The translations under genes were made by a program, and so were the position numbers. A DNA stretch of 64,000 nucleotides, taken from assembly GCA_002898235.1 (NCBI GenBank), contig BEIL01000004.1, positions 499 through 64,498 of the forward strand. Direction: 5' to 3'. Source of the stretch: a bacterium HR35. GTDB lineage: Bacteria; Patescibacteriota; Minisyncoccia; UBA6257; HR35. Positions 1,205 through 27,872 of this stretch are shown piece after piece; within the stretch, counting starts at the first letter, position 1, and every line of letters starts with the position of its first letter. The notes beneath the pieces are model-generated. The model saw only the letters and a program-made list of their open reading frames with translations, ran no database searches and was not told the DNA's origin.

Positions 1205-1223
1205 TTTTAATATTATCTTTAAG

Positions 1224-1814
1224 TTAATGATAAATCATCGAAGGTATACTGTCTACATAAAAGTAAGAACATCCCTTTTTCTTACATCCGTTTATTTTAT
1301 TATTAAAATCAATATTTTTTATTAATTCTCTAAATTCATTAATTTTTTTAACGGCATAATCTTTCAGAAATTTATTGATTATTACTTTTTTTCTTTTGTT
1401 AATTTTGTAAAAATATATATAACCAAAATCAATTTCTTTTTTTAGCATCTCTTCTAGACATAGAGACTGTAAGGTTAATTGTATTTTATGGAAAAAGTTT
1501 ATTCGTGGGTAACCAGCTTTATATTCAATAGGGATTGTTAAGTTTTTATTGACTTCAACTAAATCACAAAAACCAAAAATTTTATATTTGTGATTAAAAA
1601 CTAACATATTCTTCAATTGTTTCTTATTTTCTCTATATTTGATGTTAATCTTATTTAAATTCTTATGATACAATGAACCTTCATATAAAAAAATATTATT
1701 ATCATCATTTTCCCAACCTAAAAGCATATATAATCCTGCTTTAGGACAATAACAGTATTCTGCTATTGTTTTTATTGGCAAATAATTATCTACAAAAAAT
1801 TTAATTTCTAACAT
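1224..1814 (-). CDS. cas4: Cas4 RecB-family exonuclease. The track ORF 1224..1859 begins at a TTG, and the likely true start is the ATG at 1812-1814 (MLEIKFFVDNYL...).
   Basis: It has an N-terminal Cys cluster (CYCPK), a DLVE motif, an EYK (ExK) nuclease motif, and a C-terminal GCKKKGC cysteine pair, which is the usual Cas4 layout of one N-terminal and three C-terminal Cys plus RecB motifs II/III. The 45-nt upstream extension of the track ORF is a GC hairpin, which is unlikely to be coding. Confidence 0.75.
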   Translation of the reverse strand: MLEIKFFVDNYLPIKTIAEYCYCPKAGLYMLLGWENDDNNIFLYEGSLYHKNLNKINIKYRENKKQLKNMLVFNHKYKIFGFCDLVEVNKNLTIPIEYKAGYPRINFFHKIQLTLQSLCLEEMLKKEIDFGYIYFYKINKRKKVIINKFLKDYAVKKINEFRELIKNIDFNNKINGCKKKGCSYFYVDSIPSMIYH

Positions 1815-1827
1815 TTTAATCCGAAAT

Positions 1828-1857
1828 GAAAACCCCGCCTTACGTGGCGAGGTTTTC
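1828..1857 (-). terminator. GC-rich hairpin immediately upstream of the cas4 ATG. It is either an intrinsic terminator/attenuator between effector and adaptation genes, or part of a small RNA.
   Basis: On the minus strand it reads gaaaacctcgcc-acgtaa-ggcggggttttc, then atttcgg. That is an 11-12 bp stem with one mismatch and a 6-nt loop, followed by a U-rich tract. It sits between the effector stop (2032) and cas4. Confidence 0.45.
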
Positions 1858-1890
1858 AACCTTCCTTTTACAATCTATACTCTTTTTGCA

Positions 1891-1967
1891 ACCGGTTTTT
1901 GCCGGTGACCGGTTTTTTGCCGGTGACTGACTGAGGTTGCTAAAACCAAACTAACCCAACCTCAGTC
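1891..1967. repeat. Intergenic structured element: two direct copies of accggttttt(t)gccggtg followed by a perfect 11-bp-stem hairpin (gactgaggttg / caacctcagtc at 1929-1939 and 1957-1967)
   Basis: Read directly from the sequence. It is unusually GC-rich for this genome and lies between the Cas12-like gene and cas4, which makes it a candidate small RNA (for example a tracrRNA-like transcript) or a terminator cluster. Confidence 0.4.
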
Positions 1968-2031
1968 AATCATATTAATTATAGCACAAAAAATATAAAA
2001 AATCAATGCTTGCCTTTTTAATAAAAATTAT

Positions 2032-4488: not shown

Positions 4489-4986
4489 ATATCTTTATTT
4501 TACCAAAAATTTGCTTATTTTATCATAAGATCCTTTATTTAAAATAAAAAAAATTTTAAGATTTTATTTATCGAAACTAAATTTTAATTTAAAATTTACC
4601 TTTTTTAAACTTTACCTAAAACAACTGCGTTGTTTATTTTACTGTTTTTGATAGATTATGAATTATAATAAACTTATGGAGCTTGAAAAGATACATTGTG
4701 TACCGTGTGAGGGAGGGGTGCTGGCGTTGAGTGATGAAAAAGATAGATAAAATTTTAGAGTAAAAACTTTTTTATTTCTCAATTACTTCTTTTAAAACAA
4801 TAGCATTATTGTGGTCAGTATCTTTGGCTGAAAAAAGGAGGGTAAGTGTTTTGTGTTTCTTTTCTAATTTTTTGATTTGATTAATTAAATTTTTCTTCTC
4901 TTTTAGTTCTTGTTTGTATTTCTTTTTGAATTCTTGTATCAATTATTTCTATCAATTTTTAATCCCAGCTATTTTAATTATAAAAT

Positions 4987-6150
4987 TTAATCTCTAAAAG
5001 CTAAATTAAGAAATATTAATGATATCAGAATTAAAAAACCTCCGTAAAGAAAAGCATAAGTAAAATTTAATTTTGTCCAAATTAAACCGCCAATTAAACC
5101 ACCAAAAAGTTGGCCAAAACCATATAAAGAATTTAAAGTACCCTGAGCTGTGGCTAAATATTCTTGAGAAATATTTTTGCCTAAATACACCATTTTTATT
5201 CCATCAATTAAAGCTAAACTTAAAGAAAGCAAAATAATTGCTGGTATGATTAAAAAATTATTAGTAATAGAAAAAATTAAAAAAGATAAAAGAGCAAAAA
5301 TAAATCCAAGTTTTAGCATTAATTTTTCTCCATATTTATCAGCTAATCTGCCAATTGGAAAAGCAAAAATAACAAAGAATAAATTAAAGATAAAATAAAA
5401 AAGAGGCAGTGTTTTTAAACTTGAATCAATTGTTTGAATTCTTAAAAGAATAAGTGAAAGAGGAAAATAGCCTAAAGAAAATAAAAAGAATGAAAATAGA
5501 TAAAGTTTTAAATTTGATGGGAAAATTTTTAAATCGAAGATAAATTTTTTGTTTTTTGAATAATTGTCTTTTTTATCTTCAACAAAAACAAAAGTTAAAA
5601 TTGCTAAAAAACCCAAAACTGAGGCAATTAAAAATAATAATTTGTAATTTAAACCTAAGAAATAATTCAGAAGAATAAAACCAACAAGAGGTCCTAAAAT
5701 TGCTCCAATTGTATCAAAAGCCCTGTGGAAATTGTATGATTTATTTAATTCCTCTTTTTCTGAAGATAAATAAATTAAAGCATCTCGAGGTGCATCACGC
5801 AGACCTTTCCCTACTCTATCTAAAATTCTCAAACCCAAAACTTGCCAAAAACTATTAACTAAATAAAGAAAAAATCTTGTTGAAGCTGAAATTGAATAAC
5901 CAAGAACTGCTAAAATTTTTCTTCGATTAAGATAATCTGCTAATCTGCCTGAAAAAATTTTTAAAATATTATTTAGAGCTTCTGCAAAACCTTCTAAAAA
6001 ACCAACAAACCAAATGGGCGCACCTAAAACTCTGGTTAAAAAAGCAGGCATAACTGAATAAACCATCTCACTTGAAAAATCATTAAACAAACTCACTAAA
6101 CTTAAATAAAAAACATTTTTATCCACTCCTAAAATTTTCTTTTTATTCAT
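4987..6150 (-). CDS. MFS-family transporter
   Basis: 387 aa with about 12 predicted TM segments and an MFS-like loop GRLADYLNRRK / GRLADKYGEK (two G-R-x-x-D-R/K motifs). Confidence 0.65.
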   Translation of the reverse strand: MNKKKILGVDKNVFYLSLVSLFNDFSSEMVYSVMPAFLTRVLGAPIWFVGFLEGFAEALNNILKIFSGRLADYLNRRKILAVLGYSISASTRFFLYLVNSFWQVLGLRILDRVGKGLRDAPRDALIYLSSEKEELNKSYNFHRAFDTIGAILGPLVGFILLNYFLGLNYKLLFLIASVLGFLAILTFVFVEDKKDNYSKNKKFIFDLKIFPSNLKLYLFSFFLFSLGYFPLSLILLRIQTIDSSLKTLPLFYFIFNLFFVIFAFPIGRLADKYGEKLMLKLGFIFALLSFLIFSITNNFLIIPAIILLSLSLALIDGIKMVYLGKNISQEYLATAQGTLNSLYGFGQLFGGLIGGLIWTKLNFTYAFLYGGFLILISLIFLNLAFRD

Positions 6151-6520
6151 TTTTTCTAAACTTTTTCAAGCTATCTAAAAATATTCCAAGAGCTAAAATT
6201 AAAAGGACAAGATCGCGAATAGCTATATCATTATAAAGGCCAAGAGTAAAAATAACTCCTAAAAGATGAAAAATTGCTAAAGCTGAGAAAATTAGAGGAT
6301 AAATATTAAAAATTAAACCTAAGCCAACAATTAAATTAAAAGTGCCATTGATTCTGAAAAAATTTTCTGAAGCAATAAAAGTTAAAAATTTAGGTAAATA
6401 AGCAGTCCAATAACCTGGATTTAAAATTTGCCACACCCCAAAAACAAAAAACACAAAACCTAAAGCAAAAGAATAAAGATTAAATTTCATTATTTTAAAT
6501 TTTACCAATTTTTGCAGCAT
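6143..6520 (-). CDS. Small integral membrane protein
   Basis: 125 aa, hydrophobic throughout, overlapping the upstream and downstream membrane-protein genes. Confidence 0.35.
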   Translation of the reverse strand: MLQKLVKFKIMKFNLYSFALGFVFFVFGVWQILNPGYWTAYLPKFLTFIASENFFRINGTFNLIVGLGLIFNIYPLIFSALAIFHLLGVIFTLGLYNDIAIRDLVLLILALGIFLDSLKKFRKNE

Positions 6521-6933
6521 TCGAAAAGTTTTTGAAGTATTGATTGGAGATTTTGTTTTTTAGAAAAGATATAAATTAAACCGAAAATTATCCACAAAAA
6601 TAAAAGAAAATATAAAACATAAAAATTAATATTTTTGACTAAAAGAAAATAAGCAAAAGCAAATAAAGTTAAAATAAATGGCAGTTTAAAAATTCTAAGT
6701 TTTTCTTTTAAAAGATTAAAAATTCCTGAAACTGTTCCGCCAATTAAAAGAGATAGAATGATTTGATTCTTAAAATAACCAAAATAATATAAAATCAAAA
6801 ATAGAAGCCAAGCTAAAGAAATTGCTCCACAAACAGCACAAATATTTTTCTTAAAGATTGAATTAAAAAACAAAACCAAAATAAAAAATATTGGAATTGA
6901 AAGAAAAATTATAAAAACTTCATCGATAAACAT
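6502..6933 (-). CDS. Integral membrane protein
   Basis: 143 aa, about 4 TM helices, with a CAVCG motif. Confidence 0.35.
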   Translation of the reverse strand: MFIDEVFIIFLSIPIFFILVLFFNSIFKKNICAVCGAISLAWLLFLILYYFGYFKNQIILSLLIGGTVSGIFNLLKEKLRIFKLPFILTLFAFAYFLLVKNINFYVLYFLLFLWIIFGLIYIFSKKQNLQSILQKLFECCKNW

Positions 6934-6940
6934 CTTTTCT

Positions 6941-7387
6941 GTGTATTCACGGACTTTTTCGGACTTAACACGGACTTTACGGACAACACTGACTCAATCG
7001 GACTGAACACAGACTTATCGGACATGTTCATTTTGTCAGTTCTGTCCGTGTATGGTCCGTGTTCAGTCTGTGTATTCACGGACTTTTTCGGACTTAACAC
7101 GAACTTTACGGACAACACTGACTTAATCGGGCTAGACACAGACTTATCGAATATGTTTATCTTGTCCGTTCTGTCCGTGTATGGTCCGTGTTCAGTCTGT
7201 GTATTCACGGACTTTTTCGGACTTAACACGGACTTTACGGACAACACTGACTTAATCGGACTGGACACTAGCTGTTCGGACTGATTAACCGACCAAATCA
7301 GACTTAATACAGACTAATCGGACTTATCGTTATCTTGTCAGTTCTGTCCGTGTATAGTCCATACCTGTCCGTGTATAGTCCGTGTTA
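6941..7387. repeat. GC-rich tandem repeat: two near-identical 129-bp units (6941-7069, 7070-7198) plus a diverged and extended third unit
   Basis: Direct reading: gtgtattcacggactttttcggacttaacacggactttacggacaacactgac... recurs with a few substitutions. Each unit is built from cggac/gtccg words at roughly 10-20 bp spacing and contains the inverted pair gtccgtg...cacggac. GC content is far above the local background. Confidence 0.85.
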
Positions 7388-7696
7388 TTATAACAATAAT
7401 TGAAAAATTATTGAAATCAAAATCATTAAAAGAAAATTAATTATCAATCCTTGATAAGGAAAAATTTTGCCTTGCCGAAGCTGAATAATTTTTTTACTAA
7501 TTGAAGGTGAAATTAAAATTATAATTCCGCCAATAATTGAACCAAGTAAAAATTTATCATAAACATAAGTTCGATTAAATAAACTTCCATAATCACCAAA
7601 CAAATAAAGATAAAAAGAACCAGTTTCATAGAAATAAAGTTTTAAAGGAAGAACAATTGAAAAAAAAGAAATAAGAATTGAAGCACAATCTATAAT
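7388..7696 (-). CDS. Possible small membrane protein. The track ORF 7388..7801 extends N-terminally through the structured RNA, and that extension (MIQKRFALDSSPEAHSPRSADAHTSAGMSLRRNRF) is probably not translated.
   Basis: Only the C-terminal ~100 aa are hydrophobic and protein-like. The first ~35 codons coincide with the GC-rich hairpin RNA. Confidence 0.25.
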   Translation of the reverse strand: MIDCASILISFFSIVLPLKLYFYETGSFYLYLFGDYGSLFNRTYVYDKFLLGSIIGGIIILISPSISKKIIQLRQGKIFPYQGLIINFLLMILISIIFQLLL

Positions 7697-7794
7697 AAAG
7701 CGGTTTCGCCTGAGACTCATTCCGGCGGAGGTGTGTGCGTCAGCACTCCGAGGGCTGTGGGCTTCGGGGGATGAGTCGAGGGCAAACCGCTTTT
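7697..7794 (-). ncRNA. ffs: Candidate SRP RNA (4.5S-like long hairpin) or another structured small RNA; the strand is not resolved
   Basis: A ~97-nt GC-rich segment folds into a long imperfect hairpin. The outer stem is aaagcggttt/aaaccgcttt (10 bp), then gactcat/atgagtc, with an apical region gugc-ugac-gcac. The minus strand shows by-eye similarity to the E. coli 4.5S 3' half (GCCGGAAUGAGUCUCAGG against GCCGGGAUGUAGCUGGCAGG) and to the domain IV block (CCGAAGCCCACAGCC against CCGGAAGGAAGCAGCC). No GNRA tetraloop was found, so this call is tentative. Confidence 0.35.
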
Positions 7795-7810
7795 GAATCA
7801 ACTTCGCTAA

Positions 7811-7993
7811 CTACCACCCTAACGCTACACTAAATCCTCCAATCCAAATTCCAATTACTGACGACTTCATTCCCAATTCTTTAACAATCAAAGCGCCGAT
7901 CCCTGCTCCAGCAGTACACAACGGACAATGAGCAAAAACAAATAATGGAATTAAAAATAAAATTAATAAAATCAAAACTAACGAGCTTTTCAT
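7811..7993 (-). CDS. Small secreted/membrane protein with a CPLC...AGAGIG motif
   Basis: 60 aa with a signal peptide followed by AHCPLCTAGAGIGALIV. It is a paralog of the N-terminus of the 26867..27346 product (AVCPVCIAGVGIGLGLS). Confidence 0.4.
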   Translation of the reverse strand: MKSSLVLILLILFLIPLFVFAHCPLCTAGAGIGALIVKELGMKSSVIGIWIGGFSVALGW

Positions 7994-8244
7994 TTTTTAT
8001 AAACATCTTTCCTATGACCAATTTTTAAAATAATTATTTTATCTCCATCAACATCAAAAAGTACTCTATAATCACCGATCCTAAGACGATATTCGCCTAA
8101 TCTTGAATCAACTAATTTTTCTGCATAAAGTAAAAAATTTTGTTGTGAGCTATAATATTTTAATTTCTTTAAAATCCTTTTTCTAATGTTAACATCTAAT
8201 TTTTTAAGATCTCGATAGGCTCCTTCTTTAAAATAAATTTTCAT
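7990..8244 (-). CDS. Type II toxin of the RelE/ParE superfamily
   Basis: 84 aa (...YRLRIGDYRVLFDVDGDKIIILKIGHRKDVYK). It shows the RelE/ParE signature (rlRvGdyRiiy......i.il.igHRkdvY). Its start overlaps the upstream antitoxin stop by 4 nt. Confidence 0.75.
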   Translation of the reverse strand: MKIYFKEGAYRDLKKLDVNIRKRILKKLKYYSSQQNFLLYAEKLVDSRLGEYRLRIGDYRVLFDVDGDKIIILKIGHRKDVYKK

Positions 8245-8441
8245 AAATTATGCTCTTTCAGGACTTTTTCTAATGGAATTAATTTTTTAGATTTTCTTCT
8301 CTGATTAATTATTCTTCTTAAGTTTTTCGAACTTAACATTTCTAAATCTTCAATAAATTTTACCCAATCTTTTAAAGACAAAATTACTTTCCGCTCGCTA
8401 ATCTTATATTTAGGAATTTTAATCAAATCTTTTGTGGCCAT
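8241..8441 (-). CDS. Cognate antitoxin (small DNA-binding protein)
   Basis: A 66-aa basic protein encoded immediately upstream of the toxin and overlapping it, which is the usual antitoxin-toxin operon arrangement. Confidence 0.55.
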   Translation of the reverse strand: MATKDLIKIPKYKISERKVILSLKDWVKFIEDLEMLSSKNLRRIINQRRKSKKLIPLEKVLKEHNL

Positions 8442-8499
8442 TTCAATTATAATTATAACATAAATCCTTGTAATAACTTTTAAGTTTCTTGATTAATAA

Positions 8500-8625
8500 T
8501 ATAATTGATGCTATTATCCGCGTAAATCAGCGTTATAATAATCAGCGTATCTCAGCATATAAGGAAAATATCCGTATAAATCCGTTTAATAATCCGTGTA
8601 AATCAGTGTTCATATCTCCATAAAT
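8500..8625. promoter_or_regulatory. Cluster of four direct repeats (minus-strand consensus CnGATTTACrCGGAT) lying 60-190 bp upstream of the antitoxin-toxin operon
   Basis: The plus strand reads tatccgcgtaaatcagcgtt / aatcagcgtatctcagcat / atatccgtataaatccgttt / aataatccgtgtaaatcagtgtt. Likely roles are operator or iteron-like binding sites. The half-sites loosely resemble DnaA boxes (TTATCCgcg, aTATCCgta). Confidence 0.35.
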
Positions 8626-9083
8626 ATTCCTTTATCTTCTCCATTTTTGACTGAATGAATTTTGAAAGGATAGATTTTAAAACCTGGCATTCCGGGTGAA
8701 CCTGAGGGCATTCCTGGTAAAGCAATACCATCAATATCTGGCTTTTCAGTTAAAAGTTTTTGAATTGCTTCAATTGGAACATGACCTTCGATAAAATAAT
8801 TTCCTAATAAAACAGTATGACATGACCAAAGACCTTGAGGAATTCCAAACTGATTTTTTATTTTTATTAATTCTTCATCTGAAACTTCATTGACTTTAAC
8901 ATTAGCACCATTCATTTTTAAATAGCCAATATATTCTTTGCAACAACCACAAGTTGGTGTTTTATAAACAACAAATTCTAAACCAGATAATTTTGATTCT
9001 TTAAATGGAGTTTTCACTAAACTATAAATCGCTCCAACCAAAATTATGCCAATTATTATTCCAAAAATTAAATTTTTATTCAT
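8610..9083 (-). CDS. DUF411/CopG-like periplasmic metal-binding protein
   Basis: 157 aa with a signal peptide, a CGCC motif (TPTCGCCKEY), and a GMPSGSPGMPG motif. This is the layout I recall for the copper-associated DUF411 family. Confidence 0.5.
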   Translation of the reverse strand: MNKNLIFGIIIGIILVGAIYSLVKTPFKESKLSGLEFVVYKTPTCGCCKEYIGYLKMNGANVKVNEVSDEELIKIKNQFGIPQGLWSCHTVLLGNYFIEGHVPIEAIQKLLTEKPDIDGIALPGMPSGSPGMPGFKIYPFKIHSVKNGEDKGIFMEI

Positions 9084-10218: not shown

Positions 10219-10833
10219 TTATTCTTTTTTAATTTCGTTTCTTAATTTTTTAATTAAATAAGCTATACCTAAAACAAACAAAATTAAAACTAAAATTGGA
10301 AAAGTTAAAATTATCAAAAGCCATAAAAGACCTAAAATAGCAAAAATCGGTGCTAAAACATTCCAACCCCTCCAATTACTAAAATTCCACCACCAATAAC
10401 CCATTCCTGGTTGTCCCCAATTCATCATCATTGGTCCCATCATCGGCATCATAAACCCTTGAGAATTTACATTTGGATCACAACCCAAAAATCTTTTTCC
10501 CATATTAATATGCATTAACTCTTCTCCTTCCTTACCATGCATCTCTTCTATCATTTTATTCATTGTTAAATGATCACTACCACCAACCATTTGCTCCATT
10601 ACATATTCGCCAACTGAATGAAAGTCTTCATTAGTTAAATCTTGACATTTAATTTCACCTCGAGAAAATTTTTCCACTAATTCCCTACCCTTTTGAATTT
10701 CAGCATTAAGTTCAGCATCCTCAGTATGAGCAAAAACAAAACTTAAAGAAAAAAGAATTAAAAACGCAAAAAATAATACTTTACTAATTTGTTGTCTTTT
10801 ATAATGTATTCGTTGTAATTTTTGATTAATCAT
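10219..10833 (-). CDS. Secreted/membrane Met- and His-rich protein, a putative copper-binding protein
   Basis: Signal peptide, a MMPMMGPMMMNWGQPGMGYWWWN Met-rich stretch, a C-terminal TM segment. It is co-operonic with csoR (4-nt overlap). Confidence 0.45.
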   Translation of the reverse strand: MINQKLQRIHYKRQQISKVLFFAFLILFSLSFVFAHTEDAELNAEIQKGRELVEKFSRGEIKCQDLTNEDFHSVGEYVMEQMVGGSDHLTMNKMIEEMHGKEGEELMHINMGKRFLGCDPNVNSQGFMMPMMGPMMMNWGQPGMGYWWWNFSNWRGWNVLAPIFAILGLLWLLIILTFPILVLILFVLGIAYLIKKLRNEIKKE

Positions 10834-11099
10834 TTTCTTTTTGCTAATTTATAAATTTTTAAGATTTCTTTAACTGCGACCTCTTCTTTTTTATTTTTAA
10901 ATTGTTCTTTAACATGTGTTTTTAAGTGATTTTCTAAAATTAAATCTTCAATTCCTGATAAAGCATTTTTAACTGCCATTGATTGAATTAAAATATCAAC
11001 ACAATATTTATCATTTTCAATCATATTCCTCAATCCTTCAATTTGCCCCTTAATTATATTCAATCTTCTTAAAATTTTTATTTTTAATTCTTTATTCAT
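10830..11099 (-). CDS. csoR: CsoR/RcnR-family copper-sensing transcriptional repressor
   Basis: 89 aa. The sequence LRRLNIIKGQIEGLRNMIENDKYCVDILIQSMAVKNALSGIEDLILENHL carries the CsoR fold signature, including the Cys and His metal ligands (C...H...C pattern). Confidence 0.75.
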   Translation of the reverse strand: MNKELKIKILRRLNIIKGQIEGLRNMIENDKYCVDILIQSMAVKNALSGIEDLILENHLKTHVKEQFKNKKEEVAVKEILKIYKLAKRK

Positions 11100-11136
11100 A
11101 TCTTAATTATACCCCATCCTGGTATTTTTGTCAAAT
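11100..11136 (-). promoter_or_regulatory. csoR promoter with an embedded CsoR-type operator
   Basis: Minus strand reads TTGACA-AAAATACCAGGATGGGGTA-TAATTAAGATATG. There is a -35 TTGACA and a -10 TATAAT. Between them is the pseudo-palindrome ATACC-N7-GGTAT, resembling the B. subtilis copZA operator (TACCctacGGGGGTA, from memory). Confidence 0.5.
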
Positions 11137-11805
11137 ATTTAATTCATCAAAAATCTTTTTAGCATCAAGGCGATAAATTTCAGAAACTTTTTTATTTGTC
11201 TTTTCTAAATATTTTTTAATTAAATGAAAACCCAAAGAATAGCCTGCCCAACGAGGTATTTTTAATTTTTTGTTTCCAAACTTCCAAGAATAAATAAGAG
11301 AGATATCTCTTGAATCAAAATATTTTTTAGCTCTTTTTAGATATTTTTTAATTTCATTTTCTTTTAAAGCCATTGACCAAGGATAAAGCTTTGAGTTTTC
11401 TCCAAAAACTTCTAATTCAAAATGTTGGCACAATCCCTCTTCAATAATGGTATGTAAAAGATTTTTTTGCATTGGTTTAAACAAATTCCATCTTACAAGA
11501 TGAATAATTTCATGAGCAATAGCTCTTGGAATTTCTTCTTTAATTACTTTATTCTTAAAATTTTTAAATTTAGGGTTAAGATAAATATAAATTAAATAAG
11601 CACTCAAAGTTTTGCCTCCATGTCCGAATCCTGGTATACACATTTGCGGATTTTCTTCATAAACAATAGCAAAATCTTCAAGTTTTATTTTTTTATTAAT
11701 CTTCTTACAAGTTTCTAAAGTAGCCTTATTAATTTCCTTCTTAAATCCTTTTAATTCCTTTCCATAAATTGAAACTGTAACCTCCATTTTAAAAATTTTA
11801 ATCAA
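11131..11805 (-). CDS. Putative HExxH zinc metallopeptidase-like protein
   Basis: 224 aa with AIAHEIIHLVRW (HExxH). No further family assignment. Confidence 0.4.
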   Translation of the reverse strand: MIKIFKMEVTVSIYGKELKGFKKEINKATLETCKKINKKIKLEDFAIVYEENPQMCIPGFGHGGKTLSAYLIYIYLNPKFKNFKNKVIKEEIPRAIAHEIIHLVRWNLFKPMQKNLLHTIIEEGLCQHFELEVFGENSKLYPWSMALKENEIKKYLKRAKKYFDSRDISLIYSWKFGNKKLKIPRWAGYSLGFHLIKKYLEKTNKKVSEIYRLDAKKIFDELNI

Positions 11806-11932
11806 AATTATAATAAATTCAAGTTAAAATGAAAAAATTTGTGAAAAAGTTGTAAATTTGCAATAAAAAATATAGAAAATGATCGATATTTTTAGTTTAG
11901 TTTAAAACTTTTGACTTAAAATAATCATTAAG

Positions 11933-13183
11933 ATGAAAAAAATTCTTTTAGATGTAGGTTCATCAACAATAAAAGTTTATAAATATGGCGAAAATAAATT
12001 AGAACAACTTTTTCAAAGAACTATATTTTTTAAAGATAGATTTGACCCTGAAGGAGGCATTTCTGAAAACAATAAAAAGGAACTTTTAGAGCTTCTATAT
12101 TCAATTAAAGAAAATAATTCCGATTCCCAAATAAAAATTTACGCTACTGGTATATTTAGAAATTTAGCTCCAAAGACTAAAAGAAATTTTATTGATGAAA
12201 TATTTTTAAAAACAGGACTTTATTTTAATATTATCTCTTACGAATTAGAAAATTTTTATTTAGAGAGAGCATTAGTGGGTAAATGTAGTTTAAATGAACC
12301 CTTGCTTTTAATAAATATTGGAGGAGGCACAACTGAGCTTATAATTATGTACGGCGAAGAGGCTATAGAAAGAAAAAATATAGAAATAGGAGTTGGAAAA
12401 ATTTTAAATGACTTTCCTGGAATTAATAAAAGCATATCGGAGATTAAAATAGAAGAATTAATAGAAAGATTTAAAGAAATTTTGCCATCTTTAGAAAACA
12501 AAATAAGAATTGCTTTTTTAAGCGGAGGAGAATTAACTTATATGAAAGTGGCTAATTATCCACTTAAGAAAAATAATTTGTTCGAAGATGAAGATCATCC
12601 TTATTTAATATACTTTGAAGATTATAAATTAAAAAATAAAGAGATTTTTGAAAAAATAACATTGGAAGAATTAGAAAAAATGATGCCAGATAATCCCAAA
12701 TGGATGCATGGAGCAAGGCCTTTTTCTGCTTTAGCTCAGGCAATTTGTGAAAAATATAATGTTGAGATTATTATTCCTTCTGATTCAAATCTAATAAATG
12801 GAGTAATTAGACAAGAATTTAGATATGTAACGATAAGTGGGAGCTTTAGAAAACATTTGGAGTATATTTTAAAAATAAAAAAAGAATTAGAAAATAAGGG
12901 GGTTCATATTTTAAGTCCAAGATTTGAAGAACCAAAAAATCCAGGAGAAGAATTTGTTATTTTCGCCGGCGAAGAGAATTTAAGCCCATTAGAACTTGAA
13001 AGGTATCACTTAGAATCAATCGAAAATTCAGATGCTCTGATAGTTTGTGATCCAAATGGTTATGTTGGAGCTTCTGCTCTTTTAGAAATTGGTTATGCTC
13101 ATTCTTTAGGAAAAAGAATTATTTTTACTGAAAAACCAGAAGAATTTATTTTAAACCAATTACCTCACGAAGTTGGCTTGTAA
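11933..13183 (+). CDS. Fusion protein: an N-terminal Ppx/GppA-type (ASKHA) phosphatase domain and a C-terminal nucleoside 2-deoxyribosyltransferase-like Rossmann domain
   Basis: The N-terminus (LLDVGSSTIKVYKY... INIGGGTTEL) matches Ppx/GppA motifs. The C-terminus (YVTISGSFRKH...ALIVCDPNGYVGASALLEIGYAHSLGKRIIF) matches the NDT/SLOG-like GxxxxEiGyA motif. Confidence 0.5.
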   Translation: MKKILLDVGSSTIKVYKYGENKLEQLFQRTIFFKDRFDPEGGISENNKKELLELLYSIKENNSDSQIKIYATGIFRNLAPKTKRNFIDEIFLKTGLYFNIISYELENFYLERALVGKCSLNEPLLLINIGGGTTELIIMYGEEAIERKNIEIGVGKILNDFPGINKSISEIKIEELIERFKEILPSLENKIRIAFLSGGELTYMKVANYPLKKNNLFEDEDHPYLIYFEDYKLKNKEIFEKITLEELEKMMPDNPKWMHGARPFSALAQAICEKYNVEIIIPSDSNLINGVIRQEFRYVTISGSFRKHLEYILKIKKELENKGVHILSPRFEEPKNPGEEFVIFAGEENLSPLELERYHLESIENSDALIVCDPNGYVGASALLEIGYAHSLGKRIIFTEKPEEFILNQLPHEVGL

Positions 13184-22060: not shown

Positions 22061-23194
22061 TTAAATTTTACTATAAATTTCTAATAATCTATTATATTTT
22101 GCCGCTCTTTCGCCTTGTAAAGGAACGCCTATTTTAAAATAATTAGCATTAAAAGCAATTCCTAAATCAATTATCCAATTGTCATTTGTCTCTCCACTTC
22201 GATGGGAAAAAATTGTAAATAAATTATTTTCTTTAGCTAATTTAACAAAATTAAATGTTTCGGTTATTGTTCCAATTTGATTAGGTTTAACAATTACACC
22301 ATCAACAGAACTTTTTTCTAAAGCAATTTTTAATCTTTCAATATTAGTTGCTGTTAAATCATCACCAATTACTTTAAATCCTTCTTTTCGAAGTTCAGCA
22401 AATTTTTCAAACTCATCTTCTTTATAAGGATCTTCTAAATATTTAACACCCAAAAGTTTTAATTTTTGATAAACATTTTTCCAATTAACAATTTTCGTTA
22501 TTTGATTAGCAGCAATATCAGCTCCAAGCTCAAAATCTTTAAGTTCTTTTAAATACAAAAATGGTTCATAATTGTCGCTAAAGTTTGTGCAAAATGCTCC
22601 TTCATCATTTCTTCCTAATGGTTTCGGCAATTTCTTCTCAATTTGATTAATAATATTTATAATTTGAACAATTAAGTTTTCTGAAAATTCATTTTTGCTC
22701 ACCAACCAATATTCCTGAAAATCTAAATTATTAAAAGAATGAACACCGCCACCAATAATATTAATAACTAATTTAGGAAATAAAATTTCTCTTTTTAGAT
22801 TGAATTCTCTAAGTAAATATTCATAAAGTTCCAGATTATTCATTTTAGCTAAAATACGAGCAAAACTAACTGAAACTCCTAAAGTAAAATTTCCACCTAA
22901 TTTTTCTTTATTCTTCCCTGCTCTCTCAATTAAAAATTCATCCAGTTCTTGCAAGCTTTGAAAATCTTTATTTTTAATATCTTTCAAAAAATTGTCTAAA
23001 TTCTTTTCAATTTTTTCACAATCTAAACAAATAACTTCGTGAGAGCCAATACTTTTTCCAGATGGAATTGATGCTTTTTCTTTTATTCCTTCACTTTCAA
23101 CCTCCACTTCAATTGTCCACTCCCCTCTTGAATCCAAAATTTTATTTACTTTTATATTATCTATTTTCATCTTCAAATTTTTTAACCATCTCAA
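22061..23194 (-). CDS. eno: Enolase (short form)
   Basis: 377 aa. The N-terminus ILDSRGEWTIEVEV...ASIPSGKSIGSHE matches enolase. The C-terminus FSHRSGETNDNWIIDLGIAFNANYFKIGVPLQGERAAKYNRLLEI matches the enolase signature SHRSGETED...DlAVa...qiKtG...rseR.aKYNqLLrIeeel. Confidence 0.7.
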   Translation of the reverse strand: MRWLKNLKMKIDNIKVNKILDSRGEWTIEVEVESEGIKEKASIPSGKSIGSHEVICLDCEKIEKNLDNFLKDIKNKDFQSLQELDEFLIERAGKNKEKLGGNFTLGVSVSFARILAKMNNLELYEYLLREFNLKREILFPKLVINIIGGGVHSFNNLDFQEYWLVSKNEFSENLIVQIINIINQIEKKLPKPLGRNDEGAFCTNFSDNYEPFLYLKELKDFELGADIAANQITKIVNWKNVYQKLKLLGVKYLEDPYKEDEFEKFAELRKEGFKVIGDDLTATNIERLKIALEKSSVDGVIVKPNQIGTITETFNFVKLAKENNLFTIFSHRSGETNDNWIIDLGIAFNANYFKIGVPLQGERAAKYNRLLEIYSKI

Positions 23195-26100
23195 TTGTTT
23201 TAATCACTACATCACTATTAACACTTATACTTTCAATTCCTTCTTTAACTAAAAATTCGACAATTTCTGGAAAATCACTAGGAGCTTGACCACAAATTCC
23301 CACATATTTTCCTTTTTCTTTACATTTTTTAATTACTTCAGCGATTAATTTTTTAACTGATTCATTTCTTTCATCTGCTAAACCTTGTAAAATTTCATTA
23401 TCTCGATCAATTCCTAAAGTAAGCTGAGTTAAATCATTTGAACCAATTGACATGCCGTCAAAAATTTCTAAAAATTCATCTGCTTGTAAAATATTTGAAG
23501 GAATTTCACACATAACATAAACTTTATAACCCTTTTCTTTTCTTGGACCTAAAACATTTTCGATTATCTCCATAACCCTTCTTCCCTCTTCAGGTGTTCG
23601 GCAAAATGGCACCATCATCGTTAAATTTGTAATCCCCATTTCTTCTCTAACCTTTTTCATTGCTAAAACTTCAAGTTCAAAAGCTTGTTTAAATTTAGGA
23701 TGATAATACCTACTTGCTCCTCGCCAACCAATCATTGGATTTTCTTCATTTGGTTCATAAAGTTCTCCGCCAATTAAGTTTCGGTATTCATTTGTTTTAA
23801 AATCAGAAAATCTAACAATTACTTCATAAGGCCAGTAAGCAACACAAATTTTAGCAATCCCTTCAGCCAATTTATCAATAAAATATTGTTTTTTATCTTC
23901 GTATCCTTGGGTAAATTCATCAATCTTTTGCTTAATTTCTTCTGATAAACTAGAGTAATTTATCAATGCATTAGGATGAATTTTAATTTCTTCAGCAATA
24001 ATAAATTCTTCTCTTGCAAGTCCAACGCCTTTTACCGGCAAATACCACTTCTCCCATGCTTCATCTGGAAGTCCAATATTAACATAAATTTTTGTTTTTG
24101 TTTCTGGTAATTTTTCTAAATTATGTTCAATCACTTCATAATCTAAAATACCTTTATAAACATAACCAGTAATTCCCGTTGAACAATCAATTGTAACTTT
24201 ATCCCCTGTTTTTAAAATCTCTGTTGCTTTTTGAGTGCCAACAATTGCTGGTATACCAAGCTCACGAGATACTATTGCCGCATGACAATTAGCAACCAAA
24301 ACAGGTGTATATTTGCTTGAAAAGACTATATAATTGTGGTCCATATCATGAATTGCTTCTATTGAGATATTATACACCTCTGATTTTTTATAATTTAAAG
24401 AAGCGTTTTCATCATCTGAAAATTTTACATTTTTCATATTTATACCCGACTCTAATAGTAATCGTAATTCATATTCTATATCTTTGTAGATTTTTGAGAT
24501 TATAGGTAATATAAAATTTTTAATTTTATAATCAGAGATTTTATTATTTCTTTCAAAATAATCATATTTAATTTGTCCCCGTTTATTGACTAAATCAAGT
24601 ATATCCCCAATAATTTGTTTAGCTATAAATCTTTGCTGTATGTTTATTTTCTTCGATATTTGGTATGTTTCATTTTGACAAGTGTTATTACTTAATCTAT
24701 GTGTATACTTAACAATTTCATCACCATATTTTTTATCAATAGAAATAACATAATAACTCCCTCTTTTATGTTTATGAAGATTAAATACAAATCCTAATCG
24801 CAAAAGGGTTATAATCAAACTTTCTAATAAAATATTATTGTTGATTCCTACCGTTATCTGGATCTGATGGGAACTAATATTTCCATCGCCATCCATTACT
24901 CCAGCAAGAAAATATTTCAAATTTTCAATATCTGCGCCTAATAAAATCGTGGGTAGTTGAGATTTTAAAAGAGATAATTCGTTAAAAACATCTTTAGAAT
25001 AAATGCATAAACTTATTACTGAATTTCTTTTATCAATTATTTGATGTAATGATTTTTTAAAAATTCTTTCAAAATTAGTTTTATAAAAATTGATGTAATT
25101 AATTTTATCTTGATTTATTTTTTGAAAAAATGATATTATATAGCCTCCTTGTTTGTTTTTTTGAATACTGCCATCAGACAATATAGAACCAAGAAGATAC
25201 ATTTTTTCATTTGATAATTCATATCTCTCAACCAGACCGTCAAAATTATCTAAACATCTTGGAATTTTAATAAAACTTAACACACCCTCCTTGCTTTCTA
25301 TAATACTTTCTATGGCTCTTTTAACTAACTTTCTATTAAAAAGTGTAAAAAATCTATGGTCTGGAGTTGATATTAAATAATTGTTTTTATTACCAATAAT
25401 AATCTTTTTTACAGCTGAGATTCTTTTGAAGCCTTCTGTAATTTTTCTCCATACCAATTTATAAGTTCTCATATCGAAAGATAATGAATATAGATTTTCA
25501 CCTCTGTTAACTTTTTCTACAACATCTTTAATTTTCATAAAGCCTTTATTAGTCAAAATTTTTGTATCTCCTTCAAAACAAGTTCTTCCTCCTTTGTCAG
25601 TAATTACACCTTTTGCTTTTTTTAGGGCAACAACCCAATCTGGATCGGTCATTTCGGTAACTAAAATTTCTCCTTCTTGAAATTCATTTATTTTAGAAAC
25701 ATCTTTAATGACTCTTACCCTACCACTTGTGATTTTTGAACCTATGGCAATACCCTTTAAAACCACTGATTGATGCGGATCAAAATCAGATTGACGCGGA
25801 TTAAGACGATATTCTTCATAAACATTATATTTTTTAGTCGAATGAACAGTTTCAGCTCTGGCTTGGACAATATAAAGTTTACCATCAATTCCATCTTTTG
25901 CCCATTCGATATCCATTGCTCTTTGATAATGTCTTTCAATTATTATTCCCATCTTAGCTAATTCTAAAACCTCTTCATCATTCAAAGAATAATTATCTCT
26001 TTCTTCTTGAGATGTTTCAACTTCTTTTACACCTCCTTTTTCAGCATAAACAATTTTTCTTACTTTTTCACCTAACATTTTTGAAATAATACTCCTAAAT

Positions 26101-26846
26101 CCTTTTTCTAATCCTTCTTTAAAAACAATCCATTCATCAGGAATCACTTTTCCTTGAACAATTAATTCTCCTAATCCCCAAACTCCATTAATAACAATAA
26201 CTTTATTTAATCCAGAGTCAGTATCAATTGTAAACATTACTCCAGAACTGGCCAAATCAGATCTTACCATTTTTTGAACACCAGCCGAAAGCTTAACCTC
26301 AAAATGATCAAAGCCTTTTTCTTGACGATAAAAAATAGCTCGATCAGTAAATAAAGAAGCAAAACAATATTTTATTTTTTCTAAAAGGTCTTTTTCAGTT
26401 ACATTAAGATAAGTTTCCTGCTGCCCAGCAAATGACGCCTGTGGAAGATCTTCAGCTGAAGCACTACTTCTTACAGCAACTTGTAAATTTTCTCCATATT
26501 CTTTTTTCAATTTTTCAAAAGCATCTAAAATTTCTTTTTTTAAATCTTCAGGAAATTCACCTTGTTTTATAAAATTTCTAATTGTTTCTCCTGCTTTTTG
26601 TAATTTTTCAACATTATAAACATCTAAATTTTGCAAAATTTCCTTAATTTTTTCTTCTAAGTTATTGCTTTTAATAAAGTAATCATAAGCTTTTGTTGTT
26701 ACTGCAAAACCATTAGGAACCCTAACTCCTAAATCAGTTAATTTCTGATACATTTCACCCAAATTAGCATTTTTCCCACCAACCAAACCAACATCTTCTT
26801 TGGTTATTTCATTAAACCATAAAATATGTTTTTCTTCCTTCATCAT
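23157..26846 (-). CDS. ppsA: Phosphoenolpyruvate synthase interrupted by a 431-aa intein. The predicted spliced product is about 798 aa.
   Basis: The N-terminus has a PEP-utilising ATP-grasp domain. The central motif GGRT, then the intein, then CHAAIVSRELGIPA reconstitutes the phospho-His motif GGRTCHAAI. The C-terminal PEP-binding domain includes GGRTSH-like and ICGQAPSD motifs. Confidence 0.85.
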   Translation of the reverse strand: MMKEEKHILWFNEITKEDVGLVGGKNANLGEMYQKLTDLGVRVPNGFAVTTKAYDYFIKSNNLEEKIKEILQNLDVYNVEKLQKAGETIRNFIKQGEFPEDLKKEILDAFEKLKKEYGENLQVAVRSSASAEDLPQASFAGQQETYLNVTEKDLLEKIKYCFASLFTDRAIFYRQEKGFDHFEVKLSAGVQKMVRSDLASSGVMFTIDTDSGLNKVIVINGVWGLGELIVQGKVIPDEWIVFKEGLEKGFRSIISKMLGEKVRKIVYAEKGGVKEVETSQEERDNYSLNDEEVLELAKMGIIIERHYQRAMDIEWAKDGIDGKLYIVQARAETVHSTKKYNVYEEYRLNPRQSDFDPHQSVVLKGIAIGSKITSGRVRVIKDVSKINEFQEGEILVTEMTDPDWVVALKKAKGVITDKGGRTCFEGDTKILTNKGFMKIKDVVEKVNRGENLYSLSFDMRTYKLVWRKITEGFKRISAVKKIIIGNKNNYLISTPDHRFFTLFNRKLVKRAIESIIESKEGVLSFIKIPRCLDNFDGLVERYELSNEKMYLLGSILSDGSIQKNKQGGYIISFFQKINQDKINYINFYKTNFERIFKKSLHQIIDKRNSVISLCIYSKDVFNELSLLKSQLPTILLGADIENLKYFLAGVMDGDGNISSHQIQITVGINNNILLESLIITLLRLGFVFNLHKHKRGSYYVISIDKKYGDEIVKYTHRLSNNTCQNETYQISKKINIQQRFIAKQIIGDILDLVNKRGQIKYDYFERNNKISDYKIKNFILPIISKIYKDIEYELRLLLESGINMKNVKFSDDENASLNYKKSEVYNISIEAIHDMDHNYIVFSSKYTPVLVANCHAAIVSRELGIPAIVGTQKATEILKTGDKVTIDCSTGITGYVYKGILDYEVIEHNLEKLPETKTKIYVNIGLPDEAWEKWYLPVKGVGLAREEFIIAEEIKIHPNALINYSSLSEEIKQKIDEFTQGYEDKKQYFIDKLAEGIAKICVAYWPYEVIVRFSDFKTNEYRNLIGGELYEPNEENPMIGWRGASRYYHPKFKQAFELEVLAMKKVREEMGITNLTMMVPFCRTPEEGRRVMEIIENVLGPRKEKGYKVYVMCEIPSNILQADEFLEIFDGMSIGSNDLTQLTLGIDRDNEILQGLADERNESVKKLIAEVIKKCKEKGKYVGICGQAPSDFPEIVEFLVKEGIESISVNSDVVIKTIEMVKKFEDENR
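24288..25580 (-). mobile_element. Intein with a LAGLIDADG homing-endonuclease domain, inserted in ppsA
   Basis: It begins at Cys423 (CFEGDTKILT..., block A) and ends ...EVYNISIEAIHDMDHNYIVFSSKYTPVLVAN (blocks F/G; terminal Asn, Ala in place of the penultimate His), followed by the +1 Cys. It contains two LAGLIDADG motifs, LLGSILSDGSI and LAGVMDGDGNI. Confidence 0.8.
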
Positions 26847-26866
26847 TTATATTATAATATAAAGTA

Positions 26867-27346
26867 ATGAAAAGATTACTAATTTTCCTTTTACCATCAC
26901 TTGCTTTAGCTGTTTGCCCTGTTTGTATTGCTGGTGTTGGTATTGGATTAGGACTTTCTCGTTATTTAGGAATTGATGATTTAATAACTGGTTTATGGTT
27001 GGGTGCTTTGGTACTTTCTTTATTTTTCTGGACAATTGATTGGTTAGATAAAAGAAACATTCGCTTTCATTATAGAGAAATTTTAATTTTGTTAGCCTAC
27101 TATCTTTTTTTGCTTTTACCTCTCTACTCCACTAATATTCTTTCTCAAAAATTAGAATTTTTAATTAAAGATAAATTATTTAGAGGAATAATTTTAGGAA
27201 GTCTGATTTTTTATTTATCGATCTTATTTGATAAATTTTTAAGAACAAAAAACAATAACAAAGTTTTCTTTCCTTTTCAAAGAGTAATCATTCCTTTAAG
27301 TTTTTTGATTTTCAGTAGTTTGGTCGTTTATTTAGTTATTAAATAA
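26867..27346 (+). CDS. Membrane protein with an N-terminal CPVC...AGVGIG motif
   Basis: 159 aa, about 4 TM segments. It is a paralog, by the N-terminal motif, of the 7811..7993 product. Confidence 0.4.
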   Translation: MKRLLIFLLPSLALAVCPVCIAGVGIGLGLSRYLGIDDLITGLWLGALVLSLFFWTIDWLDKRNIRFHYREILILLAYYLFLLLPLYSTNILSQKLEFLIKDKLFRGIILGSLIFYLSILFDKFLRTKNNNKVFFPFQRVIIPLSFLIFSSLVVYLVIK

Positions 27347-27347
27347 A

Positions 27348-27872
27348 ATGGACAATTTAGATCTCAAAGTAAAAGAATTTATTGCAAAAGTTAAAAATAC
27401 CAAAGAAGAATTTGATCTTTCAGCTGATGAAGATTTATCTGTTGCCTTAATGAATTTAATTTCAATTGAAGAGCATTTCTTTTTTACTGGAGCTAAAACA
27501 GAAAAAACAGAATATTTTGATTTAATTAATGAAGTCAGAAAAATTAGAAAAGAACTTTTAAAAAGAATTGTTAAAGATTATGAAGGTGAAGTTTGGTGTC
27601 TGTCTAAACATTTATTAGCCTCATCTATGAGATTGATTGAGGTCGGCACTAAAGAATTAGATAAAGGGAATAAAGAACTTGCTTATGATTTATTTGATAA
27701 AGCCTATGCTCTTTATTCACTCTTCTGGGCTTTAAATTTAAAAATAATTGATATTGGCGAGGTTAAAAAAATTAATGAAGATAAATTAAATAAAGAAGAC
27801 AAAGAGACTGGCTCTGTCTTCAAAAAATTAGGTGAAATTGTTAAAAAACTTATTGATTGCTGTAAAGAATAA
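27348..27872 (+). CDS. Hypothetical cytoplasmic protein
   Basis: 174 aa, no recognisable motifs. It is co-directional with, and adjacent to, 26867..27346. Confidence 0.35.
   Translation: MDNLDLKVKEFIAKVKNTKEEFDLSADEDLSVALMNLISIEEHFFFTGAKTEKTEYFDLINEVRKIRKELLKRIVKDYEGEVWCLSKHLLASSMRLIEVGTKELDKGNKELAYDLFDKAYALYSLFWALNLKIIDIGEVKKINEDKLNKEDKETGSVFKKLGEIVKKLIDCCKE

Follow-up and report, generated by a model that had tools for sequence, protein, structure and literature searches.

The stretch analyzed here of the genome of bacterium HR35, a Parcubacteria-like hot-spring organism, is a 64,000 nt window of contig BEIL01000004.1 (assembly GCA_002898235.1). It has a single listed ORF at 23157..26846: ppsA, on the reverse strand, encoding a phosphoenolpyruvate synthase (PpsA) precursor of 1229 aa followed by a stop codon. 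Coordinates below are for this window, and all features are on the same strand. In the NCBI model (P0002) the start lies one codon downstream, for 1228 aa, and the protein is labeled in GenBank simply "Phosphoenolpyruvate synthase." The ORF is unbroken over 3.7 kb in a genome of 27% GC; the neighboring enolase seems eroded, being about 50 aa short. The protein carries the organism name "bacterium HR35," and the closest PpsAs are from Candidatus Parcubacteria, in agreement with a sequence-only reading of the window which had taken its source to be a CPR-like bacterium.

The same reading had placed a 431-aa LAGLIDADG intein at precursor residues 423-853 (nt 25580-24288), and these boundaries prove exact, both by motif positions and by alignment to an 89%-identical intein-free ortholog, which shows a single, clean gap of 431 codons over just these residues. 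The N-extein (aa 1-422; 25581..26846), ending ...VITDKGGRT, holds the ATP-grasp domain (PPDK_N) along with the first half of the phospho-His swivel domain; the C-extein (aa 854-1229 plus the stop codon; 23157..24287) starts with CHAAIVSRELGIP, where the Cys+1 codon (24285-24287) is followed by that of the catalytic His (24282-24284). Within the precursor, GGRT is found at aa 419-422, CFEGDTKIL from aa 423, VLVAN at aa 849-853, and Cys+1 at aa 854. Pfam assigns PPDK_N to aa 20-340 and PEP-utilizers_C to 914-1223, with the PEP-utilizers mobile domain in two separated stretches, the best at 853-891. Motif positions, Pfam, and the ortholog alignment all put the intein one residue before the catalytic His, as first read. 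Its removal restores the predicted GGRTCHAAI motif and an enzyme of 798 aa, matching the anticipated length, with the junction GGRT/CHAAIVSRELGIP (GGRT/CHAAIV; slashes mark splice junctions) and a spliced sequence reading ...DKGGRTCHAAIVSRELGIP....

The insert itself (24288..25580), from Cys1 to Asn431, has the features of a class 1 intein: a Cys nucleophile at position 1 (CFEGDTKILT), a block B TxxH, and a terminal Asn with Cys at +1. The N-terminal splicing (HINT) subdomain (intein aa 1-105; 25266..25580) includes block A, with Cys1 at 25578-25580, and block B, TPDH (T72, H75), at 25356-25367. The C-terminal splicing subdomain (aa 386-431; 24288..24425) includes block F, EVYNISIEAIHDMDHN, with Asn404 at F:4 and His415 at F:13, and block G, ...TPVLVAN, with a penultimate Ala and the terminal Asn431 at 24288-24290; blocks A and F/G and the terminal Asn had all been recognized from the sequence. 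Between the two lie a LAGLIDADG homing endonuclease and a following helical region (aa 106-385; 24426..25265), of the L036/L060 type discussed below. Both LAGLIDADG motifs originally named are present, LLGSILSDGSI at precursor aa 551-561 (25164..25196) and LAGVMDGDGNI at aa 647-657 (24876..24908); they end in ...SDG (D136) and ...GDG (D232), with acidic residues where LAGLIDADG helices have their catalytic ones. An alignment of 16 family inteins has nine invariant residues (C1, T72, H75, D136, D230, G231, V402, N404, and N431) and three nearly invariant ones (≥90%; D232, Y403, and H415), and the HR35 intein keeps every one of them. The +1 residue is Cys or Ser across the family.

A profile made from the 16 homologous inteins matches the segment end to end (profile positions 1-413 to aa 423-853; whole-ORF E = 1e-127) and matches no other ORF of the window, so the assignment is not a chance one; by the same token, no second intein was found with this profile among the other ORFs of the window. 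Pfam LAGLIDADG_3 scores 33.2 bits on the precursor (cut-off 22.5) and Intein_splicing 28.7 bits, under its cut-off of 35.8. A PDB sequence search gave only a marginal match, to the NrdJ-1 intein (E = 0.06). An AF2 model (pLDDT 87.3, pTM 0.89) predicts a HINT fold, and Foldseek matches this predicted fold end to end with PI-PfuI (1dq3; the top match, E = 2e-19), TliVMA and PhoVMA (7qss and 7qst; TM 0.67 for TliVMA 7qss, the highest), PI-TkoII (2cw7), and PI-SceI (1vde), with E-values from 2e-19 to 2e-10. The endonuclease core of the model superposes on I-DmoI (TM ~0.7 on target). At 10-18% identity, and with other hosts and insertion sites, however, these full-length matches are analogues in mechanism rather than alleles.

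The insertion site, PEPS, is a familiar one, often occupied in bacteria as well as in archaea: GG[TRM]T/CHAA is cited as a prokaryotic intein site (PMC10710043). The family was surveyed by a splice-junction DNA scan of genomes with a hand-made degenerate pattern and by an exhaustive phmmer search. The pattern matched at least 119 species genomes, with 118 of 119 loci confirmed as encoding intein homologs; 53 of these genomes are archaeal and 66 bacterial (15 CPR/Patescibacteria, 28 Cyanobacteria, 15 Proteobacteria, and eight other bacteria). The initial statement that PEP synthase inteins at this site are known mainly from archaea therefore has to be withdrawn. The phmmer search with the HR35 intein yielded full-length homologs (E down to 1.5e-48). 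Homologous inteins occur at GGxT/C...N/[CS]HAAIV in dozens of PpsAs, and in about 12 of the 120 nearest to that of HR35; NCBI names one sibling protein (P0008) [quoted passage not shown] The HR35 element is like others of the PEPS allele in its insertion point, just before the Cys-His of the phospho-His motif; in its combination of a HINT domain and a two-motif LAGLIDADG endonuclease in about 400-430 aa; and in its Cys1, TxxH, VYN...HNY, terminal Asn, and +1 Cys/Ser, with no penultimate His. The allele has as its prototype the Methanocaldococcus jannaschii intein listed in InBase as "Mja PEP," reportedly the specific object of the work of Chen, Benner, and Perler in 2000. The Methanocaldococcus MAG inteins L015 and L092 end in ...VVFN, as does P0136, a close relative with 81-87% identity to them; the Methanocaldococcus clade is only about 30% identical to the HR35 intein, whose host is a CPR bacterium. 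A penultimate (G:6) His is frequent but not obligatory in class 1 inteins, and the Ala found here had at first been thought notable. Among 94 complete inteins of the PEPS allele, however, this residue is N, C, A, S, G, W, F, E, D, K, or R, with His in a single case; a non-His residue being the rule in the family, the Ala is nothing out of the ordinary. Asn at F:4, where the usual residues are listed as Asp, Cys, or Trp (PMC4031507), is likewise a trait of the whole family, the Methanocaldococcus clade included.

If the 431 residues were instead a native domain, specific to the CPR lineage and not mobile, they would not be without company: CPR PpsA relatives have other in-frame loop insertions, of low complexity at extein positions ~244 and ~538 and of PD-(D/E)XK type at ~671. 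(The last, PF13366, were considered as alternative occupants of the intein site and rejected, from their position and their lack of splice motifs.) A native domain found in all CPR PpsAs, an alternative raised in the sequence-only reading, is refuted by the four closest PpsAs (89-90% identical), all without the segment. In the ortholog alignment the gap coincides exactly with the splice junctions, no intein block is missing from the segment, its predicted fold is that of a bifunctional intein, and Cyanobacteria, Proteobacteria, and archaea have homologs in this position, so that even a lineage-specific native domain deserves almost no credence. Nor does it seem at all probable that the segment is a degenerate intein that no longer splices, or a domesticated insertion domain, leaving ppsA as a pseudogene or as the gene for a permanent 1229-aa protein. 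The missing penultimate His, the F:4 Asn in place of the usual Asp, the sub-threshold Pfam Intein_splicing score, and the eroded look of the adjacent enolase might be read in this way. All family-invariant splicing residues are kept, however, and both substitutions are family-wide; according to passages in PMC4031507 and PMC7664689 citing Chen, Benner & Perler (2000), splicing without a penultimate His is established. The reading frame is intact in a low-GC genome, and extein dN/dS values of 0.11-0.16, relative to the intein-free ortholog, indicate purifying selection; HR35 ppsA is thus taken to be functional, which makes splicing both necessary and likely and implies that functional PpsA is produced. 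Unspliced PpsA could hardly work, its swivel domain being broken by the insert only one residue away from the catalytic His.

Horizontal acquisition, also proposed at the outset, finds support in the nearest relatives, whose sites are empty, and in the incongruence between intein and extein trees. The HR35 intein shares site and host clade with a set of Parcubacteria inteins (P0008, P0017, P0028, and L103 from Candidatus Paceibacter), whose exteins are 73-88% identical to its own, and over residues 1-30 it is 80% identical to that of P0008. Overall, however, identity is 36-39%, with ~28% in the endonuclease core and 31-36% in the region after it, two regions where the Parcubacteria inteins are 54-76% identical to each other. 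The closest intein-bearing hosts have exteins 84-88% identical to that of HR35; for other host pairs, exteins of 72-82% identity go with inteins of 53-70%. Neighbor-joining places the HR35 intein with two others of a rare type, L036 and L060, from one distant CPR MAG and one Woesearchaeota MAG: bootstrap values for this clade are 98.7% for the whole intein (0% for joining the main CPR core) and 84% for the endonuclease region alone, in trees made only by this method, with sub-lineage partners of only 37-42% identity and all three sequences on long branches. Could this grouping be a long-branch artefact, and the intein have come down vertically from an intein-bearing Parcubacteria ancestor, with precise loss in the sister lineages and fast, AT-driven divergence and nuclease decay in HR35? 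Intein clades do largely match host taxonomy; the first ~75 and last 11 residues of the HR35 intein are P0008-like; its composition is fully host-like and FYMINK-rich; and bootstraps for the splicing domain alone are ambiguous (48% vs. 17%). Yet HR35, L036, and L060 have three independent indels in common which are absent from all main-clade CPR inteins (the marks of the sub-lineage being a +1 insertion at QGGY, loss of a 14-aa loop, and an additional residue in RGxIKxxY), and the best match of L036 among the family queries is HR35. With these indels, the bootstrap values, and the intein-free closest PpsAs, purely vertical descent is unlikely, although less so than either of the readings above.

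A foreign base composition was considered as a sign of recent transfer and rejected: intein GC (z = -1.4) and GC3 (z = +1.1) are within the range of host genes, so in composition nothing marks the element as foreign. Relatives of the intein peptides were found neither in JGI metagenome contigs nor in IMG/VR, which thus provide no evidence of a phage vector or of close circulating copies; a DNA pattern for the sub-lineage signature gave two chance matches in metagenome contigs, both without an intein. Compositionally ameliorated, and with no close relative anywhere, the HR35 intein does not appear to be a recent arrival.

The P0008-like stretches at its two ends, the first ~75-80 residues and the last 11, suggest a further possibility. 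By max-chi2, there is a breakpoint close to residue 80 (P = 0.004, for a test picked after looking at the alignment). In addition, 9-17 residues upstream of the junction (25605..25631) there is a cluster of HR35-specific extein substitutions, VALKKAKGV vs. PIMKIAKGI in the relatives, which could stem from co-conversion or be compensatory; synonymous differences are not raised there (seven in the 30-codon window, vs. 3-12 in other windows), so that co-conversion is backed at the amino acid level only. The HR35 intein might conceivably, then, be a recombinant, with ends from the resident Parcubacteria type, a core from the rare CPR/Woesearchaeota (DPANN) type, and the extein cluster as a leftover of co-conversion; this is somewhat easier to credit than simple vertical descent, but still doubtful.

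The reading we hold to be very likely is the broader one: a genuine class 1 intein with a monomeric, two-motif LAGLIDADG endonuclease, at the known PEPS site (Thr422/Cys854), brought in or rebuilt through horizontal transfer and recombination and not by plain inheritance. Its core would be that of the rare sub-lineage in the distant CPR and Woesearchaeota MAGs, while its ends are similar to the type that its closest intein-bearing relatives carry. The analysis shows the anatomy, the conserved residues, the predicted fold, the empty sister allele, the phylogenetic placement, and purifying selection on the extein; that the intein splices, that its nuclease works, and which way and when it was transferred are what we infer. 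The 1229-aa precursor would be made with its phospho-His swivel domain split, and for that reason should be inactive. An N-S acyl shift at Cys423 would be followed by attack of Cys854 (+1) on the thioester to give a branched intermediate; cyclization of Asn853 would free the intein, and an S-N shift would join GGRT to CHAAIV, yielding the active enzyme of 798 aa. Provided that its nuclease still works, the released intein of 431 aa could then cut intein-free ppsA at the conserved AAAGGAGGAAGAACT/TGTCATGCGGCAATAGTATCTCG, and recombinational repair would copy the intein into the cut allele. An intact candidate target is seen in a syntenic Parcubacteria relative (GCA_026004495.1; PpsA 89% identical), where the empty site, AAAGGAGGAAGAACT/TGTCATGCGG, is identical to the HR35 target sequence. 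A functional selfish element is plausible, if putative. Compared with those of sibling inteins, the endonuclease core is far more diverged; it has lost the 14-aa loop and gained AT-rich, low-confidence insertions (pLDDT <50 at residues 301-313; FYMINK 45%); together these could represent nuclease decay.

Evidence of homing and horizontal spread within the same host radiation has been described for another group of the same nuclease superfamily, the LAGLIDADG endonucleases of CPR rRNA introns (PMC11270868). Those are mostly single-domain, intron-encoded, and free-standing, however; that of HR35 has two motifs and lies inside a protein-splicing element. For its site the HR35 element is ordinary, the unusual trait being its apparently mosaic ancestry, and concepts of intein function are unchanged by it. 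For annotation, the 1228-aa GenBank protein should be given as a mature enzyme of 798 aa and a free endonuclease, both predicted. The PEPS allele spans DPANN and methanogen archaea, CPR, Cyanobacteria, and Proteobacteria, and should no longer be assumed to be mainly archaeal; for intein chemists it has some value to know that non-His G:6 and Asn F:4 belong to the family as a whole. Together with the occurrence of a rare sub-type in both CPR and DPANN, the mosaic ancestry adds modestly to the markers of gene flow among ultra-small symbionts. If the HR35 intein is indeed recombinant, it would be a record of intein module exchange, and possibly of inter-domain gene flow, between two groups of ultra-small episymbionts.

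The ppsA precursor is a single ORF of 1229 aa in the window (23157-26846, minus strand), whose translation has GGRT at aa 419-422, CFEGDTKIL from aa 423 on, and VLVAN up to aa 853, followed by CHAAIVSRELGIP. The insert so bounded is 431 aa long (nt 25580-24288, minus strand), exactly as placed in the sequence-only reading, and its excision in silico yields the product expected there, a 798-aa protein with the motif restored (...DKGGRTCHAAIVSRELGIP). By Pfam, the extein carries PPDK_N (aa 20-340), PEP-utilizers_C (914-1223), and the PEP-utilizers swivel domain in two separate stretches. In the suggested comparison with intein profiles, LAGLIDADG_3 matches within the insert at 33.2 bits (cut-off 22.5), and Intein_splicing reaches 28.7 bits, under its 35.8 cut-off. 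In a 16-sequence alignment, C1, T72 and H75 (the block B TxxH), D136, D230, G231, V402, N404, and N431 are among the invariant residues, and D232, Y403, and H415 are at least 90% conserved; the HR35 intein keeps all of these. Position 4 of block F is an invariant Asn in the aligned PEP synthase inteins, in place of the usual Asp. An AlphaFold2 model built from this alignment (pLDDT 87.3, pTM 0.89) has low confidence only in an HR35-specific loop (residues 301-313); its full-length Foldseek matches include PI-PfuI (E 2e-19), the TliVMA intein (TM 0.67), PI-TkoII, and PI-SceI, and I-DmoI matches its endonuclease core. The LAGLIDADG profile match, the conserved residues, and this predicted bifunctional-intein fold bear out the proposed two-motif LAGLIDADG intein. 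It is a class-1 intein, because Cys1, TxxH, the terminal Asn, and a +1 Cys are present and no class 2 or class 3 signatures were found in it.

The window is bacterial DNA, with genes for bacterial-type IF-2, a PilB/GspE ATPase, HtrA, and bacterial ValRS and CysRS, and a GC content of 27.4%; no tRNA or rRNA genes were found within its 64 kb. The GenBank entry for HR35's own PpsA (P0002, “Phosphoenolpyruvate synthase [bacterium HR35],” 1228 aa) does not mention the intein. Two of the closest PpsAs (89-90% identical, 790-797 aa) are named Candidatus Parcubacteria bacterium, in keeping with the CPR-like host first proposed, and the insert is absent from all PpsAs at this level of identity, at odds with a native domain of CPR PpsAs generally. 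One of these is on a 634-kb contig of GCA_026004495.1 that shares the window's gene order (2-hydroxyacid dehydrogenase, ppsA, enolase, DoxX and, further on, CysRS). The protein alignment between the two has one 431-codon gap, at 423-853; the site-flanking DNA (AAAGGAGGAAGAACT and TGTCATGCGGCAATAGTATCTCG on either side) is the same in both; and blastn places the breakpoints at window 25578 and 24288. The single clean gap, identical flanks, and breakpoints mark the insert as a discrete element missing in the closest relatives.

Where the syntenic relative has only a ~90-nt spacer, the window has ~1 kb separating ppsA from the 2-hydroxyacid dehydrogenase gene (26857-27872, plus strand), with two orphan ORFs, one of 159 aa that looks membrane-like and one of 174 aa, neither with a Pfam match. 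The adjoining enolase (22061-23194, minus strand) lacks ~50 aa relative to the syntenic ortholog (aa 171-232 at L001, the relative's locus, vs. 174-183 in the window), the missing stretch lying after the conserved FQE segment and before the conserved DEG segment, and scores 228 bits, under the NCBIfam eno cut-off of 300; it may be a variant with a truncated barrel or a gene undergoing erosion. At L001, a PD-(D/E)XK domain (PF13366, PDDEXK_3) lies in frame within an NDH-2 (Pyr_redox_2) gene (10232-12100) that is not in the window, where DoxX abuts cysS. PF13366 also interrupts several related PpsAs (P0077, P0082, P0087) at extein position ~671, with intein junction motifs absent at these inserts, which may be a second, non-intein type of in-frame nuclease insertion in the clade. 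P0014 and P0015, two PpsAs that share 82% identity with the extein of HR35, bear the labels Candidatus Aenigmatarchaeota (its contig is 99.6 kb long) and Methanomethyliaceae archaeon; these are either misbinned CPR contigs or a recent CPR-archaea PpsA transfer.

Elsewhere in the window, a type V-E-like CRISPR-Cas locus (224-4488, minus strand) includes Cas1 (224-1204; Pfam Cas_Cas1, E 6e-72), Cas4 (1224-1859), and an 818-aa Cas12e/CasX homolog (2032-4488; NCBIfam NF045604, 792 bits with a cut-off of 200, profile 1-885 of 886). No CRISPR array was found in window 1-9000; one may be located before the first base of the window. CasX has been described in Deltaproteobacteria and Planctomycetes, and the compact CasX of a hot-spring CPR genome may merit separate study. 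Three imperfect 22-nt direct repeats (8513-8610, plus strand; ATTATCCGCGTAAATCAGCGTT-like, their starts spaced 25 and 51 nt apart), just upstream of an ORF at 8610-9083 (minus strand), could be an operator or other protein-binding site.

The extein is under purifying selection (dN/dS vs. the intein-free ortholog 0.11 by NG86, 0.16 by LWL85), and a functional PpsA depends on splicing, since the swivel domain is broken by the insert one residue away from the catalytic His. The intein reading frame (1293 nt) is intact, with both LAGLIDADG acidic residues retained, and the intein is likely splicing-competent. Its predicted endonuclease part is unusually diverged: it is ~28% identical to those of the Parcubacteria PpsA inteins P0008 and P0017 (54% to each other), has lost a loop of 14 aa, has acquired AT-rich insertions, and has a FYMINK content of 45%, vs. 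37.5% in host genes. The region after the endonuclease is 31-36% identical to that of these siblings, which are 74-76% identical mutually.

The penultimate Ala, called notable in the sequence-only reading, is ordinary within the PEP synthase intein family: among the matches listed from species genomes, this residue in 94 complete inteins is N in 35, C in 24, A in 10, S in 7, G, W, or F in 4 each, E in 2, and D, K, R, or H in 1 each. Chen, Benner and Perler reportedly worked on the M. jannaschii PEP synthase intein; the intein of P0136, 81-87% identical to those of two Methanocaldococcus MAGs (L015, L092), ends ...VVFN, in agreement with that identity. The companion remark, that Ala is compatible with splicing, stands, splicing without a penultimate His being established (Chen, Benner & Perler 2000, as cited in PMC4031507 and PMC7664689).

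Twelve close relatives share the same residue at 524 extein positions; HR35 departs from them at 12, and four of these cluster at residues 406-414 (25605-25631, minus strand), 9-17 residues upstream of the junction (WVVALKKAKGV vs. WVPIMKIAKGI in relatives; permutation P = 0.014 for any 17-aa window). The cluster could be a co-conversion tract left by homing, or else a compensatory change; in the alignment to the GCA_026004495.1 ortholog, synonymous differences are not raised within it.

Across intein-bearing PpsAs, intein identity follows extein identity (Spearman 0.63), and host pairs with 72-82% identical exteins have 53-70% identical inteins. HR35 is an outlier, its intein being 36-39% identical to those of P0008 and P0017 despite 84-88% identical exteins. 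In a neighbor-joining tree of 111 inteins, clades mostly follow host taxa, with HR35 outside the main CPR clade. Its partners there are L036, from a CPR MAG that carries a Saccharibacteria label and whose extein is 54% identical, and L060, from a Woesearchaeota MAG whose extein is 42% identical. This grouping is supported by three indels common to all (a +1 insertion at QGGY, loss of the IRGRxxxG loop, and an extra residue in RGxIKxxY); its bootstrap value is 98.7% when the whole intein is used, 84% with the endonuclease region, and an ambiguous 48% with the splicing domain alone, and that for HR35 joining the main CPR core is 0%. A maximum chi-squared test places a breakpoint near residue 80 (P=0.004), with informative sites matching P0008 at 18 of 24 to its left and 34 of 102 to its right; the outcome is similar when L060 replaces L036, and the last 11 residues are again CPR-core-like. 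The simplest reading is a recombinant, with local CPR-type ends and a rare-type core common to distant hosts, suggestive rather than proven because the test was picked post hoc from the alignment and the basis is distance methods. The intein is not recent, since its GC (24.9%, z -1.4) and GC3 (17.6%, z +1.1) are inside the host-gene range and no relatives above ~42% identity were found in representative proteins, species genomes, JGI metagenome contigs, or IMG/VR.

Searched exhaustively with phmmer, 1.84 billion representative proteins yielded 106 relatives at E <=1e-3, 37 of them at E <=1e-10. Nearly all full-length ones occupy PpsA at GGxT/C...N/[CS]HAAIV; a few are in RtcB (...T/CF...N/CHGAGR) or at a second PpsA site (SREMGIP/C) ~14 residues downstream (P0140 and P0143, and P0133, P0141, P0148, and P0163, are relatives at these two other locations). 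This agrees with the clustering of an RtcB intein with prokaryotic PEPS inteins of the GG[TRM]T/CHAA site (PMC10710043), and fits the idea, put forward in the same paper, of non-allelic jumps among sites that share CH-containing microhomology. The intein is present in ~12 of the 120 nearest PpsAs, one named by NCBI [quoted passage not shown] A degenerate DNA pattern for the C-terminal junction (T-P-x-x-V-x-N/[CS]-H-A-A-I-[IV]) matched at least 119 loci in a 185,579-species genome set, and tblastn found a homologous intein in 118 of the 119 matches listed. By record title, these include at least 53 archaea (DPANN groups, Methanocaldococcus, Thermoplasmatota, Methanosarcinales, and others) and at least 66 bacteria: at least 15 CPR/Patescibacteria, 28 Cyanobacteria, 15 Proteobacteria, and 8 others. 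The allele is not mainly archaeal, contrary to the sequence-only reading, nor is it new to CPR. The sequence-only reading recognized the kind of element correctly but overstated its novelty: the HR35 intein is a new, divergent, and probably mosaic member of a known PEP-synthase allele already common in CPR.
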